A DNA stretch of 25,774 nt from Candidatus Heimdallarchaeota archaeon (GCA_018238545.1 JABCTC010000049.1:1-25774); one strand, 5' to 3'. Positions 13,875 through 20,669 are shown, counted from the stretch's first letter. The notes: generated by a model not told the origin, from the letters alone. Numbers and translations are program-made.

Positions 13875-14963
13875 GTGATATTATTGCACAAAAAATTATG
13901 GATTCCAGGACCAACAGAGGTCAAAGAAGATGTTCTCATGGAACAAGCAAAACCTCTATTCGGCCATAGAAGTAAAGATTTTACACTACTTTATGATAGT
14001 GTATTGACACAACTCCGAGAATTTTTCAAAACAGAACAACATGTTTTAGTTATAACAGCTTCTGGAACAATATTCATGGATATAGCAGCACGAAATCTAA
14101 TTACTAATGAAGGTAAGGCTCTGTGCTGTGTAAATGGTTCATTCTCTTCAAGGATGCATAAAGCTATTATTGATAGTGGGAAGAAAGCAGATCGTATGGA
14201 AATAGATTGGGGAAAAGCTGTAACCGTTGAAATGATCAAAGAGAAACTAGAAACATCCAATTATGAAGCTGTAACATTTTGTTATAATGAAACCAGTACT
14301 GGAGTTAAAGCCGATCTTAAAGCAATTGGAGAGCTATTGAAAAATTATCCTGATACACTCCTAGTCGTTGATGCTGTATCATCAATGGGTGGAGATATGT
14401 TGTTGCCTGATGAATGGGGAACTGACCTTGTTTTTGCATCTACACAGAAATGTTTTGCATTACCTCCAGGTCTTGCTATTGGAATTGTCTCACAAAAGGC
14501 ACTAGATCGAGCAAAAACTGTTCCAGATAAAGGTATGTACATCAACCTAGAAGCTATATTAGGGTATTATGATAAGAAGAAACAAACACCATCAACACCT
14601 AATATTTCACTGCTTACAGCATTTGATTACAAACTTAAACAAATGTTAACAGAAGGTGCAGAAAATATCTACAGACGTCATAAAGAGATGGCTGATTACA
14701 CACATGAATGGGCATTAAAACATGGTTTTGGTCTATTTGCAGAAGAAGGCTTCAGATCGGTTACTGTTACAACCGTTGATAATAGAGAAAAGAACATGGA
14801 TATCGATGCTCTTAACAAAGCTTTAGCTGAGAAAGGTCTTGTAATTGCTAATGGCTATGGTCCATTCAAAGGAAAGACTTTCCGAATAGGACATATGGGT
14901 GATCATACCCTCGATGGTTTAAAGGAGCTTTTAGCTGCCATTGAAGAAATCTGGGAATTATAA
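13875..14963 (+). CDS. Class V PLP aminotransferase (alanine-glyoxylate/serine-pyruvate type; probable archaeal phosphoserine aminotransferase)
   Basis: IPGPT, NETSTG, VDAVSS, STQKCFALPPG (PLP Lys), FRIGHMG; directly upstream of serA. Start may be TTG 13884 after AGGTGA. Confidence 0.9.
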   Translation: MILLHKKLWIPGPTEVKEDVLMEQAKPLFGHRSKDFTLLYDSVLTQLREFFKTEQHVLVITASGTIFMDIAARNLITNEGKALCCVNGSFSSRMHKAIIDSGKKADRMEIDWGKAVTVEMIKEKLETSNYEAVTFCYNETSTGVKADLKAIGELLKNYPDTLLVVDAVSSMGGDMLLPDEWGTDLVFASTQKCFALPPGLAIGIVSQKALDRAKTVPDKGMYINLEAILGYYDKKKQTPSTPNISLLTAFDYKLKQMLTEGAENIYRRHKEMADYTHEWALKHGFGLFAEEGFRSVTVTTVDNREKNMDIDALNKALAEKGLVIANGYGPFKGKTFRIGHMGDHTLDGLKELLAAIEEIWEL

Positions 14964-14976
14964 AGGTGAAAAACAA

Positions 14977-15900
14977 ATGCCAAAAATAATACTAACTGAC
15001 AAATTAAATGAAAAAGCAGTTGAGGTTTTAGAAGCAGCTGGTTTTGAAGTAAAAGTTGCTTGGGATATTCCCAAGGAGGACCTCCCAAAAATTATTGGTA
15101 ATTTTGATGCAATTATTGTAAGATCTGCTACAAAAGTAAGAGGAGATTTATTTGACAAGGCAGTTAATCTCAAAGTAATAGGAAGAGCTGGTGTAGGTCT
15201 TGATAACATTGACATGGAAACAGCACTTGCACGAAACATCAAAGTTGTAAATACTCCTGCAGCTACAACCAACTCTGTTGCTGAATTAGCATTAACGATG
15301 ATTCTAGCTTCAACACGTGATGTAGTTAAAGGTACTTGTGAAATCAAATCTGATCCAAGTAGTTTCAAAACTCTGAAGAAAGAATTATTCTCCCGTGAAA
15401 TTGATGGTAAAACTCTAGGATTAATAGGGACTGGACGAATTGGTACAAGTCTTGCAGTCAAATGCAAAGCTCTAGGCATGAACGTGATTGGATATGACGC
15501 TTTTGTTGCCGAGAACCCTGTTGTAGATATGAAACCTTCAATGGATGATATACTCAAAGAAGCTGATTTTATTAGTCTCCATCTTCCTCTAAATGAAGAC
15601 ACCAAACATATGATTGGAAAAGAAGCTATTGCTAAGATGAAAAAAACTACTGTTTTAATTAACTGTGCTAGAGGTGGAATAGTTGACGAAACAGCTGCAC
15701 ACGCAGCATTAGAATCTGGGGATTTAGGCTACTATTGTACAGATGTTTTCGAAATTGAACCTCCAACCAAAGATAATCCTCTACTTCATCATGAAAATGT
15801 TATAATCAGTCCTCACATTGGTGCTCAAACGGCAGAAGGAAATATGAGAGCTAGTGTTCAAGCAGCTGAAAGAGTTATAGACGCTTTTAAAGAACTTTAA
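14977..15900 (+). CDS. serA: D-3-phosphoglycerate dehydrogenase (short form without ACT domain) / D-2-hydroxyacid dehydrogenase
   Basis: VRSATKV, IGRAGVGLDNID, GTGRIG, INCARGG, DVFEIEPP, SPHIGAQT. AGGTGA RBS precedes ATG 14977. Confidence 0.88.
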   Translation: MPKIILTDKLNEKAVEVLEAAGFEVKVAWDIPKEDLPKIIGNFDAIIVRSATKVRGDLFDKAVNLKVIGRAGVGLDNIDMETALARNIKVVNTPAATTNSVAELALTMILASTRDVVKGTCEIKSDPSSFKTLKKELFSREIDGKTLGLIGTGRIGTSLAVKCKALGMNVIGYDAFVAENPVVDMKPSMDDILKEADFISLHLPLNEDTKHMIGKEAIAKMKKTTVLINCARGGIVDETAAHAALESGDLGYYCTDVFEIEPPTKDNPLLHHENVIISPHIGAQTAEGNMRASVQAAERVIDAFKEL

Positions 15901-17301: not shown

Positions 17302-18774
17302 TCATATGCATCTATCTACAGCAGAAGAACCCCTTTCATCATATTCTGCTTTTGTTACCCAGAGGTTTCTTTCATTGAAAATTTTTAAAGAAGAAAGAAT
17401 TGATCCTCCAATCCAACTTTTAATTAATCTGTTACTATCAGCTTCAACTTTAATCTCTATATGGTCTGGTATCTTGCTTCTAATATCTGAATAGAATCTT
17501 TCCCTGAAACCTCTATATAATGTTCCTCCACCGATTAGAACAATGTTTGATAAAACAAATTTAAGCAAATCTGAATCACATTTCTGAGCAGATTCTATTA
17601 CAGCATCAGTTAAATCTCCAGGTTCCCCTGTTACACTCAATGGTTCATTTCGGAAAAGTATTTCAGGTGCTTTGAACAAAATTTCATCATATTTTACGAA
17701 ATTGTCGTTGATGATATTTGCAGATCTTATTTGTTTGTCCGTTTTTTGCCAAATCTGTTTTTCTTTCTTAGGATTTTCCGATACATAACACAATTCTTCA
17801 GTAGCATATCTTATGTTTCTATCTATGATATTTCTTTGATTTATAGTCCCTTTAAACTGAGTAATACGTTTGTTAGTATAGTCTTTCATTAATTTAGTAA
17901 CATCATTTGCACCTATATTTCGAATACTAATACTATGACTAATTAGATAACCATCATATATGGGAAGGATTCTAGTTGCAGAAGCACCAATATTTACAAC
18001 TAATCCCGTCACATTTCCATCAGCATAAAGTGACATTAACTCCTTTATTGTGAAATATACTTTGGAGATGCTAAATTGGTCAAATAGAATTCTAGCAATT
18101 TTTCTTCTAATAACCTTTGTTTGTTCATAAACTCCAATATATTCAAGCAATTTTTCCTTACGAAGAATATTTTTTGCATTTTCAGGTAGAGACGAATTGT
18201 TTATCACATCTTTTCTTCCCTTAAGGTAATCAACATAACTGTCCCTCTGAGGCCTCTCAAGAATCATTATTGCTATTTTCGAGGATTCTACTTTCATTTT
18301 CTCAAATATGTGGCTAAAGAAAATCTCAAGATGTTTTAAATCTATTTTTTCTTCTACGTTGTCTGTTTCAAGATAAACGGGAGCTTTTTTTACTATTTTC
18401 TTCTTTGGAATAACATCTAGACTTTGAATAAATGTGTCTCCATCAGTAGAATAAAAAATTACAGATTCAAAAATGTATCTTGGTTGATTTTCACCTGCAA
18501 AACCTACTTTTGTAAAACTTGATCCTAAGTCAATTACTATGGTTGTAGGATTTTTCATTCTTACAACTAATTTGACCTCCTCAATTTGATTCTTAAAAAC
18601 ACCTTGGGATTTCATTAAATCAATATTTTTTAAAAACTTAGAACATAGCTCACAATAATAACCAATTGTGATCCACTTACGTTGTTCAGTCCCCTTCCTT
18701 ATATAGACTCTCTGCATAGCTTTTCCGCAATGTTTTGGTCTAGTTTTTTGCAGTTTTTCGGGCATATCTTCCAC
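17302..18774 (-). CDS. Actin-related protein with N-terminal Zn-ribbon-like extension
   Basis: IVIDLGSSFTKVGFAGENQP, SLYADG..TGLVVNIG, PIYDGY, EELCYV, APEILF, IVLIGGGTLYRG, WIGGSILSSL and WVTKAEYDERG match actin. The N-terminus has KHCG...CELC. Confidence 0.93.
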   Translation of the reverse strand: MEDMPEKLQKTRPKHCGKAMQRVYIRKGTEQRKWITIGYYCELCSKFLKNIDLMKSQGVFKNQIEEVKLVVRMKNPTTIVIDLGSSFTKVGFAGENQPRYIFESVIFYSTDGDTFIQSLDVIPKKKIVKKAPVYLETDNVEEKIDLKHLEIFFSHIFEKMKVESSKIAIMILERPQRDSYVDYLKGRKDVINNSSLPENAKNILRKEKLLEYIGVYEQTKVIRRKIARILFDQFSISKVYFTIKELMSLYADGNVTGLVVNIGASATRILPIYDGYLISHSISIRNIGANDVTKLMKDYTNKRITQFKGTINQRNIIDRNIRYATEELCYVSENPKKEKQIWQKTDKQIRSANIINDNFVKYDEILFKAPEILFRNEPLSVTGEPGDLTDAVIESAQKCDSDLLKFVLSNIVLIGGGTLYRGFRERFYSDIRSKIPDHIEIKVEADSNRLIKSWIGGSILSSLKIFNERNLWVTKAEYDERGSSAVDRCI

Positions 18775-18823
18775 TTGTGCTATATTTACTTAATTAACTA
18801 CAATTATTAAAGATTACCAAGGG

Positions 18824-18843
18824 TATATCATATTAATGATATA
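18824..18843. promoter_or_regulatory. Perfect inverted repeat TATATCAT-N4-ATGATATA, possible operator
   Basis: Lies 50 bp upstream of the actin-like gene in the divergent intergenic region. Confidence 0.35.
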
Positions 18844-18974
18844 TCGTCCCGTAATGGTATATCCTTTCTGACATATGTGATTTGTGCTGGATGTAATGGA
18901 AGAAGTAAGATTTTTTCATACTGATATATTAGGGGTCAAGGAAAAAATTAAAAAAGAGTAAATAATGAAAACGC

Positions 18975-20258
18975 TTGATAAGAATGGTTGATATCAAACC
19001 CTTTCGAGCAATAAGGTATACAGAAAAGGCAAGCGATATAGAAAAACTGATTGTCCAACCTTATGATAAAATAGATGAAGAAATGCAAAAATCATATTAT
19101 GCTCAATCAGAGTATAATTACAGCAGATTAACACTTCCAAGTGAAGAGAACCGTTACGAAATATCCCGTCAAAGATTAGAAAAATGGTTAGCAGAAGGGA
19201 TACTAGCAAAAGATGAAGTTCCAGGAATTTATGTTTACTATCAAACGTATGAACTTTTTGGGAAAGAATATATAAGAAAGGGTTTCATAGGAGCCTTAAA
19301 ATTACATCCTTTTGATGATAATATTGTTCTACCTCATGAAAAAACTCACAAAGGACCTAAGATTGATCGTCTGAATATGCTTAGAACAACTAGACACACT
19401 CTTGAAACAGGATTTATTCTATATTCCGATCCAGATAAAAAAACCACTAATCTTTTCGATGAAATTTCTCAAGGCGAACCTTTAATTGATGCTAAAGATG
19501 ATCTTGGTGTTCAAAATAAAATATGGAAAATAACCGATTCAGCACACATAAGAATAGTCCAAGATGTTTTCAAAGAACAGCAATTAGTAATAGCCGATGG
19601 GCACCATAGGTATGAAACAGCTATCACCTATCGTGATATGCGTAGGAAAGATGCTAGTGCTTTAAGAGATTATGATGCTTTTGAATACCGTATGACTTAT
19701 CTTGTTCCTGTAGAAGATGAAGGTTTAATAATTTTGGCGACTCATCGCTGTCTAGCTAAAGAAGCTGTCTCAGAAGAAAAAATGAATGAACTTAAACTGT
19801 TCTTCAATATGAATGAGATAATGAGAACTGAAATTCCTGGATTCTTAGAAGAAAATAGGGATAAACACGCTTTTGTTATGTATCAGGATAGAAGAGCTAT
19901 CTCCATGATTATGAAGGATCCTTCAGCAATTAACAGATATGTTAGCGATGCCAGTGATGACTTCAAGACTCTAGATGTTGTAATCTTGCGAGATATGATT
20001 TTCCATGGTATTATGGAACTTAAAGATCTCCACATAGATGATGATATCTTCTATGAAAGATGGTGGAATGAAGCCATTGAAGAGGTAGATGCTGGAAAAT
20101 ACAAGGTAGCATTTATTCTAAATCCTACTAGTGCAGATGAAGTTCTAAAAGTTGCCAAGAATCATGAAAGAATGCCTCAGAAAGCAACTGATTTTTATCC
20201 AAAGATGATCAGTGGCTTCACAATGCTAAGTTTAGAAGATGGAGAAAAACTTCTCTAA
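18975..20258 (+). CDS. DUF1015 family protein (ParB/Srx-like IADGHHR motif)
   Basis: IKPFRAIRY, PYD, LPHEKT, IADGHHRYETA, THR, MPQKATDFYPK. Likely start is ATG 18984. Confidence 0.9.
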   Translation: MIRMVDIKPFRAIRYTEKASDIEKLIVQPYDKIDEEMQKSYYAQSEYNYSRLTLPSEENRYEISRQRLEKWLAEGILAKDEVPGIYVYYQTYELFGKEYIRKGFIGALKLHPFDDNIVLPHEKTHKGPKIDRLNMLRTTRHTLETGFILYSDPDKKTTNLFDEISQGEPLIDAKDDLGVQNKIWKITDSAHIRIVQDVFKEQQLVIADGHHRYETAITYRDMRRKDASALRDYDAFEYRMTYLVPVEDEGLIILATHRCLAKEAVSEEKMNELKLFFNMNEIMRTEIPGFLEENRDKHAFVMYQDRRAISMIMKDPSAINRYVSDASDDFKTLDVVILRDMIFHGIMELKDLHIDDDIFYERWWNEAIEEVDAGKYKVAFILNPTSADEVLKVAKNHERMPQKATDFYPKMISGFTMLSLEDGEKLL

Positions 20259-20306: not shown

Positions 20307-20669
20307 CTAGAAATTTCCTCCACAATTTGTGCAAAACTTTGTTCCAATCGCATTCTTCCCTCCACAGTGTTTACATATAATCTCCCCACTTTCTGTAGAA
20401 GGTGATTGTTCAATTATTGGTTGTTGATATGTATTTAGCACATTATCTTCTGGTAAAGATGTGAATACTTGGGGCTCAGCAAAGGATTGATTTTTCTCTT
20501 TTCTTGATTGTATTATCATAGAAATGAAGATGATAAGACCGATTCCACCTACAACAAGAAGTGCAAACCCATACTCAGGATCGATAAATAGCATAATTAT
20601 ACCAATAACAATTAATCCTGGAGCCGCATAAATAATCCTTCTAACGAAAATTGATTTGCCTTTTAACAT
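20307..20669 (-). CDS. Membrane protein with C-terminal zinc ribbon
   Basis: Two TMs, Q/P/S-rich linker, CKHCG...FCTNCG. Confidence 0.8.
   Translation of the reverse strand: MLKGKSIFVRRIIYAAPGLIVIGIIMLFIDPEYGFALLVVGGIGLIIFISMIIQSRKEKNQSFAEPQVFTSLPEDNVLNTYQQPIIEQSPSTESGEIICKHCGGKNAIGTKFCTNCGGNF

Follow-up and report, generated by a model that had tools for sequence, protein, structure and literature searches.

Which task can an actin perform when a zinc-ribbon-like module precedes its fold and its active site has decayed? The question is raised by a gene, hereafter ZnARP (zinc-ribbon actin relative), found in a contig of 25,774 nucleotides from a Candidatus Heimdallarchaeota archaeon (JABCTC010000049.1), the whole of which is referred to here as the window. 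Actin-related proteins of the Asgard archaea figure in models of eukaryogenesis, with an activity proposed for almost none of them, and no publication describing a zinc-ribbon/actin fusion was found in a literature search. An earlier reading of the locus (the original prediction) had recognized such a fusion; the conserved barbed-end groove, the promoter boxes and the wider module family described below are new relative to it. The interpretation favoured here is that ZnARP may be an ATPase-dead, non-homopolymerising relative of actin whose zinc ribbon would bind the promoter of its own gene; confidence is high for the fusion and for the degenerate active site, and moderate, overall about evenly balanced, for the model of autoregulation by DNA binding.

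Reading frame and translation start

The open reading frame occupies positions 17302-18774 on the (-) strand and comprises 490 uninterrupted codons counted from a GTG at 18774, the start assumed in the original prediction. This start was not confirmed: the database copy of the protein has 487 amino acids, matching an ATG at 18765, three codons inside the GTG, and in the orthologues an SD-like element of the GGTG type is conserved 5-9 nt before the ATG, where the window reads GTGGA. The ATG is therefore the probable start and the GTG would sit within the SD-like element, so that the coding sequence becomes 17302..18765 (-), encoding 487 aa followed by the stop; residue numbers (H15, C16, etc.) are nevertheless counted from the GTG throughout. 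Translation from M20, where gene callers place the start of some orthologues, was considered and rejected, since the peptide KPKHCGK is still encoded in frame upstream of it; no ATG, GTG or TTG is found in frame upstream of M20 in these orthologues, for which an ATT or ATC start is possible. In one of them (L022:690-750) the usual ATG is mutated, leading gene callers to begin at M20; KPKHCGK is again in frame and the possible starts are only ATT or ATC.

Reality and distribution of the fusion

Three parts follow one another in the protein: a basic zinc-ribbon-like module (residues 11-49; 18628..18744, (-) strand), delimited by its conservation in alignments and by a predicted three-stranded sheet; a variable linker (residues 50-75; 18550..18627, (-)), with a pLDDT of 54-66 falling below 50 at residues 58-63; and an actin-fold domain (residues 76-490; 17305..18549, (-)). 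A protein database search retrieved about 40 orthologues of 471-519 aa with the same architecture (39-89% identity, coverage 96-100%), both parts being always fused; the next tier of matches consists of canonical Asgard actins, 375-381 aa long and 29-34% identical. Alignment of the orthologues shows the module and the actin part to be equally conserved.

When other genomes were searched for the same fusion, a profile of the module matched 20 of 399 Asgard species genomes, once per genome (16 of 23 in the genus of the window, 2 of 2 in a second genus and 1 of 1 in a sister family), and in each of these 20 genomes the frame that contains the module stays open over about 482-526 aa, except where the contig stops first. 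A scan of 185,579 species genomes with a back-translated pattern yielded 14 loci, 12 labelled Heimdallarchaeota, one Thorarchaeota and one Promethearchaeati; the orthologous loci carry Heimdallarchaeota MAG labels, and the orthologues fall in three genera. In the sister genera, two closed genomes included, it is the entire ZnARP gene that is absent and not the module alone, while one absence within the same genus is accounted for by a contig that breaks off within the adjacent DUF1015 gene. Besides the constant fusion in the orthologues, a contig from an independent study spans the module/actin junction identically, and a co-occurring strain variant differs over codons 11-83 by 25 base changes, most of them synonymous, as only 8 residues change, with no insertion or deletion. 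These observations show that ZnARP is a genuine, always-fused protein in which a flexible linker connects the basic zinc-ribbon-like module to the actin fold.

The genome of the window (3.63 Mb, 92% complete) also encodes two canonical actins, which score 450 and 443 bits compared to the 201 bits of ZnARP; on sequence grounds ZnARP is thus a third, divergent and lineage-specific actin paralogue of the Heimdallarchaeaceae, in agreement with its proposed distinctness from the canonical Asgard filament actins. Lokiactin genes of this genome lie at C21:52144-53253 and C52:8187-9299. In a limited tree with lokiactin and eukaryotic actin, all ZnARP sequences group together (SH-aLRT 100) outside these two, and the stem of their clade is long. 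The confinement of the gene to three genera suggests that it arose late, within this lineage, and that the nuclear ARPs do not descend from it, so that its narrow distribution bears on the readiness of Asgard archaea to repurpose actin rather than on direct nuclear-ARP ancestry.

The zinc-ribbon-like module

The H-C-x24-CxxC module that had been noticed ahead of the actin is confirmed by the alignment of 27-29 orthologues, where its pattern reads H15-C16-x24-C41-x2-C44, with C16, C41 and C44 invariant and H15 nearly so; the invariant or nearly invariant positions comprise, in addition to these four, K18, M20, Y24, R26, G28, T29, R32, W34 and G38. Its basic character is apparent over residues 4-60, which contain 13 K+R vs 4 D+E. 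Modelled alone, the module is predicted to form a three-stranded sheet and a helix (core pLDDT 83-91). The first 72 residues of ZnARP matched no Pfam family, and no Pfam zinc ribbon at E<=0.1; searches with the isolated fold gave no Foldseek match at E<=0.001, the matches obtained being weak, with a TM of 0.58 over about 60 residues and a best VIA Z of 3.9 (for a COMM domain, judged unrelated), and an Atlas feature search with the module returned nothing above 0.85.

A recurring weak match (Foldseek probability up to 0.54) is the zinc ribbon of large serine recombinases (PF13408), which is a DNA-binding domain. In the predicted model, the ZnARP module shares with it a small β-ribbon followed by a helix, and the two superpose with a TM of 0.57-0.59 by query and an rmsd of 2.8-3.1 over 57-63 residues (VIA Z 3.0-3.2), a match too weak for a claim of homology. 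The two differ in the first knuckle, since in zinc ribbons this is usually CxxC while in ZnARP it is H-C, two adjacent residues with an atypical zinc-ligand geometry.

The actin fold and its degenerate active site

The complete actin fold of the original prediction is supported both by Pfam, where residues 77-488 cover profile positions 5-407 of 410 of the Actin family (PF00022; 204.5 bits vs a cut-off of 27), and by an AF2 model built with the family alignment (pLDDT 85.6, pTM 0.81), in which the predicted four-subdomain fold superposes on many actins with a Foldseek TM of 0.84-0.88 by target. Among the best 60 solved sequences for the ZnARP profile all are conventional actins, the first in rank being HC1 actin from Hodarchaeales (9wc4), and no solved ARP is present.

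The active site was compared with that of 11 canonical actins, drawn from eukaryotes and Asgard archaea and including both of those encoded in the genome of the window, all of which keep D11, N12, G13, S/T14, G15, K18, H73, Q137, D154, G156, D157, G158, H161, K213 and E214. Among the compared active-site positions the ZnARP family retains only D11, G13, K18, G156, T160, E214 and G301/302. In the phosphate-1 loop, DLGSSFTK instead of DNGSGxxK (18508..18531, (-)), N12, S14 and G15 are not conserved: N12 is replaced by L, I or P, position 14 is variable and G15 is mostly S. In the phosphate-2 loop, NIGASATR instead of DSGDGVTH (17971..17994, (-)), D154 is replaced by N, G, S, H or M, D157 by A, S or N, G158 is lost and H161 is Arg (R268 in the window) in every member; H73 and K213 are also lost, and K336 is mostly Leu. 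The predicted replacements of D154 by N261, of D157 by A263 and of H161 by R268 are all recovered in HMMER and MAFFT alignments. That of Q137 by Lys holds for the window, where both alignments place K244 (18043..18045, (-)) at the catalytic position, but it is specific to a subclade, most of the family carrying Gly. Conventional and Asgard actins bind metal and split ATP with these lost residues, and we infer that the actin part of ZnARP would not hydrolyse ATP by the actin mechanism; the preservation of D11, G13, K18, G156 and E214 makes nucleotide binding, and even some unconventional hydrolysis, possible.

Filament faces, D-loop and insert

Two further features of the original prediction, an insertion of about 40 aa after the ERP sequence and a shortened D-loop, are both present in the alignments. 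The insert comprises 41 residues (177-217; 18124..18246, (-)), is conserved and predicted to be helical (pLDDT 81-94, motif LKGRxDVINNSxLPExxKExL), and follows ERPQ in subdomain 1, where it replaces the actin 110-112 loop involved in the interstrand contact; the subdomain-2 loop is 5-7 residues shorter, and the plug region has gained 2 residues and is hydrophilic in character.

The faces of the filament, defined by textbook F-actin contacts and not by contacts derived from a ZnARP model, have diverged unequally: the family consensus equals the canonical consensus at 67% of the barbed-face positions, 3% of the pointed and 12% of the lateral ones, and 39% of all other positions. No such asymmetry is seen in three Asgard actins that are just as divergent but devoid of the module (pointed 16-34%, barbed 31-39%). 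The barbed-end groove motifs LSLYA, PIYEG, WIGGSIL and the C-terminal RCI are kept, the conservation of this face including in part structural core (LSLYA, WIGGSIL). Judged by these alignments, the pointed-end and lateral filament contacts are lost in ZnARP and the barbed-end groove is kept; ZnARP would accordingly be unable to homopolymerise as actin does, with a groove that is probably functional and whose selective conservation points to an actin-type protein partner.

According to a different explanation, ZnARP is still a cytoskeletal actin that polymerises, handling its nucleotide in an unconventional way, and the zinc ribbon does no more than anchor the filaments or bundle them. The complete actin fold predicted with high confidence and the retention of D11, G13, K18, G156, E214 and the GGG motif speak for this possibility, as does the fact that distant actin-like proteins polymerise via different contacts; yet a pointed-face identity to actin of 0-12% and a lateral one of 8-19%, the short D-loop, the hydrophilic plug, the insert at the interstrand loop and the absence of the catalytic Q137, D154 and H161 render it very unlikely.

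Gene neighbourhood

The order of the genes around ZnARP is conserved down to 41% ZnARP identity: a divergent DUF1015 gene, ZnARP, a convergent PanE gene, a SerA-like dehydrogenase and a class-V aminotransferase. A functional link of ZnARP to these neighbours is unsupported, the block looking metabolic and DUF1015 persisting without ZnARP in sister genera. The DUF1015 protein (18975-20258, (+)) contains a DGHHR motif reminiscent of ParB/sulfiredoxin-fold enzymes, and the SerA-like gene (14941-15900) and the class-V aminotransferase (13875-14963) are conserved beside it; together the three may constitute a metabolic block related to serine and phosphoserine.

Two other observations concern this region. 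At 20307-20669 (-) lies a gene for a protein of 120 aa whose N-terminal part contains hydrophobic segments and whose C-terminal part is a CxxC...CxxC zinc ribbon, weakly matched by the Pfam families DZR and Zn_Ribbon_1; the protein is kept in several syntenic loci and is unrelated to the ZnARP module. In a closed genome of a sister genus (G015:C1:729254-730246, L040), the intact DUF1015 gene is followed after about 1.5 kb by another copy, which is truncated and interrupted by a TAG.

Relatives of the module outside ZnARP

A search of 1.84 billion representative sequences with the module profile gave 38 matches. Those that are not ARPs are rare metagenomic proteins of 37-156 aa, some with two modules in tandem, sharing the pattern CxxC-x3-M-x-R-x-Y-I-R...K-W-I-P-[IV]-G-Y-Y-C-x2-C; the CxxC...CxxC arrangement of the standalone relatives suggests that the H-C knuckle of ZnARP evolved from a CxxC knuckle. 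One protein of 156 aa with two distant module copies in tandem (L045:4852-5471) adjoins a phage-type integrase and is possibly encoded by an autoregulated gene of a mobile element. The module of the H-C type also occurs in a second fusion (P0157/P0124, L046:1-230), joined to an unrelated domain of about 390 residues that has no Pfam match and only weak Peptidase_C39/BtrH-like leads (Atlas scores 0.86-0.87); a GyrI-like gene follows this fusion, and the GC content there is 42%. Searches of metagenome contigs, with the module profile and then with P0157, and of viral contigs confirmed no further loci. Since it is present standalone, in tandem and on a second unrelated protein, the module is a portable unit.

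Promoter boxes

Upstream of ZnARP three boxes related to the palindrome ATGrTATAyCAT are found on the gene strand: the distal box 1, AGGATATACCAT (18854..18865, (-)), which matches 11 of the 12 positions; box 2, ACGATATATCAT (18836..18847, (-)), 18 nt from box 1 start to start; and box 3, ATGATATACCCT (18820..18831, (-)), which follows box 2 at 16 nt and precedes by about 8 nt a TATA-like element, TTTAATAA (18804..18811, (-)). The latter, found at a matching position when the upstream regions of the orthologues are aligned, probably represents the archaeal core promoter. The three-box array with its 18+16 nt spacing recurs in 19 of 19 distinct orthologous ZnARP promoters (consensus A[T/C]GATATA[C/T]CAT), in which the intergenic sequence around the boxes is not conserved; box 1 is the best conserved and reads ATGATATACCAT in most of these loci, and three loci have an extra box over the start codon. 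In the co-occurring strain variant from the probable source metagenome (run X1, window 18774-18904), the flanks align, but the promoter stretch, of equal length (129 nt), has diverged too far for an alignment at 88% identity.

Single boxes occur in the genome of the window at chance level: of 77 sites matching at least 11 of 12 positions, only those of the ZnARP promoter lie more than one within 60 nt. A looser second cluster (C48:19767-19857) was discarded as a regulatory site because it is a coding tandem repeat, GDHDIS; the gene concerned (C48:19243-20067, (-)) encodes a 274-aa membrane-anchored protein, and the DNA of its GDHDIS-type repeats mimics the box motif.

Boxes are also found at other genes carrying the module. 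The contig of the P0157/P0124 fusion has four of them (matching 12, 11, 11 and 11 of 12 positions), flanking a TATA box upstream of the ATG, and at the tandem-module gene of L045 the sequence AAAATGTGTATAACATG, a box of the ATGTGTATAACAT type, is present three times, its final copy covering the start codon. None is found at three non-fused homologues of the P0157/P0124 C-terminal domain, nor upstream of DUF1015 in sister genera devoid of the ZnARP gene. The region upstream of the standalone relative P0129 shows no boxes, though the gene in question is internal to an operon. The presence of boxes with the module in two unrelated fusions and in a distant relative, and their absence at the non-fused homologues, indicate that the boxes follow the module and not the fused domain, which in turn suggests that the module binds them. 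The tethering of ZnARP to nucleic acid that had been proposed thus finds circumstantial support in operator-like palindromes that appear to travel with the module.

These data can be read differently. Zinc ribbons often bind proteins, and that of ZnARP might be a tether to a protein or RNA (acidic actin, the ribosome or a membrane partner), a separate transcription factor binding the boxes and timing ZnARP production; the weak top Foldseek match of the module, the toxin-binding zinc domain of MqsA, and the lack of a strong structural match fit this alternative, and the boxes do lie in an intergenic region shared with a divergent gene. We consider it unlikely, because boxes are found along with the module in two fusions to unrelated partners and at a distant relative that stands alone, because they are missing at the non-fused homologues and at DUF1015 promoters without the ZnARP gene, because the genome contains one array and only one module, and because no regulator gene is conserved beside the ZnARP loci.

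The occurrence of the same module with the same boxes on a non-actin protein suggests a portable autoregulatory cassette, and opens the way to another explanation, namely that ZnARP is a one-component regulator with no cytoskeletal role, in which the degenerate cleft would sense a small ligand, or the assembly of the protein itself, and thereby control whether the zinc ribbon binds DNA; sensing and dimerisation would then be the tasks of the actin fold, in the manner of trigger enzymes or ROK repressors. Binding as a dimer is implied by the palindromes, and the cleft has kept ribose and phosphate anchors but not the catalytic residues. Against it, no second target cluster is found in the genome, so that the protein would regulate only itself, and the selective conservation of the barbed-end groove points to an actin-type partner; this reading is accordingly held to be quite improbable.

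A model for ZnARP and its implications

In the autoregulation model, the zinc ribbon would be a sequence-specific DNA-binding unit recognizing ATGrTATAyCAT palindromes, by means of which ZnARP would sit on its own promoter and limit its own synthesis. The actin part would neither hydrolyse ATP by the actin mechanism nor form an actin-type homopolymer, and its intact barbed-end groove would hold a partner, the most plausible candidates being the pointed end of either canonical actin of the cell or a ligand of the profilin/gelsolin type. As a counterpoint, the P0157/P0124 fusion could have acquired its promoter and its module jointly by inheritance.

A bolder version of the same scheme, which we regard as improbable, sees in ZnARP a chromosome-anchored binder of actin ends: the zinc ribbon would fasten a few copies of the protein to a single centromere-like array at its own promoter, thereby also capping synthesis, while the barbed groove would capture or nucleate the pointed end of lokiactin filaments. 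If true, one chromosomal locus would be coupled to the Asgard actin cytoskeleton through a fused ParR/parC-like adaptor built from actin.

Among Asgard actin-related proteins ZnARP offers a concrete and testable case, that of an actin fold which would have given up ATP hydrolysis and self-assembly while keeping the face used for binding actin or its ligands, and which is joined to a module that probably binds DNA sequence-specifically, at a 12-bp target that can be named. Were the proposals made here to hold, it would be, as far as known, the first member of the actin family to carry a DNA-recognition domain of its own, and its module would define a new small family of zinc-ribbon DNA-binding proteins that also occurs standalone, in tandem and on other proteins.

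Comparison with known systems

With lokiactin and conventional actin ZnARP shares the four-subdomain fold (as predicted), the barbed-groove motifs and the D11/G13/K18/G156/E214 anchors; it is distinguished from them by an identity of about 29-34% and by the module, the 41-residue insert and the short D-loop.

The eukaryotic Arp2/Arp3, the dynactin Arp11 and the nuclear Arp4-9 are, like ZnARP, divergent actin paralogues that bear insertions, and, as is predicted for ZnARP, their ATPase is altered or weakened, they conserve one filament face and they do not self-polymerise; in Arp2 and Arp3, in particular, the barbed end is conserved and the pointed end has diverged. Unlike them, ZnARP is limited to three Heimdall genera, and its profile ranks conventional actins best. 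The likeness to nuclear ARPs is therefore best regarded as an analogy only; to our knowledge, no eukaryotic ARP has a built-in zinc-ribbon DNA-binding module.

The ParMRC type II system resembles the ZnARP locus in that an actin-fold gene lies behind iterated operator-like repeats flanking a core promoter, and in that a DNA-binding function would exert autoregulation. The differences are, however, several: the ParR adaptor is a separate gene in ParMRC, whereas in ZnARP the adaptor-like part is fused and no ParR-like gene lies beside it, its neighbours being DUF1015 and PanE; ParM dynamics need the ATPase residues, which ZnARP lacks; ParMRC resides on a plasmid, whereas the ZnARP locus is chromosomal and syntenic, with only 3-5 boxes; and a cassette of the ZnARP type, unlike ParMRC, is also found on a non-actin protein.

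The ROK repressors (NagC/Mlc) and the trigger enzymes PutA and BirA provide a further parallel, a DNA-binding domain being fused in them, as proposed for ZnARP, to an ASKHA-fold or enzyme domain. No ZnARP regulon beyond its own promoter was found in a box scan of the 3.63-Mb genome, and it is on palindromic operators at their own promoter that these proteins act, as would ZnARP; they differ from it in the parts employed, using HTH or RHH domains and an ASKHA fold of the sugar-kinase type, whereas ZnARP combines a zinc ribbon with an ASKHA fold of the actin type.
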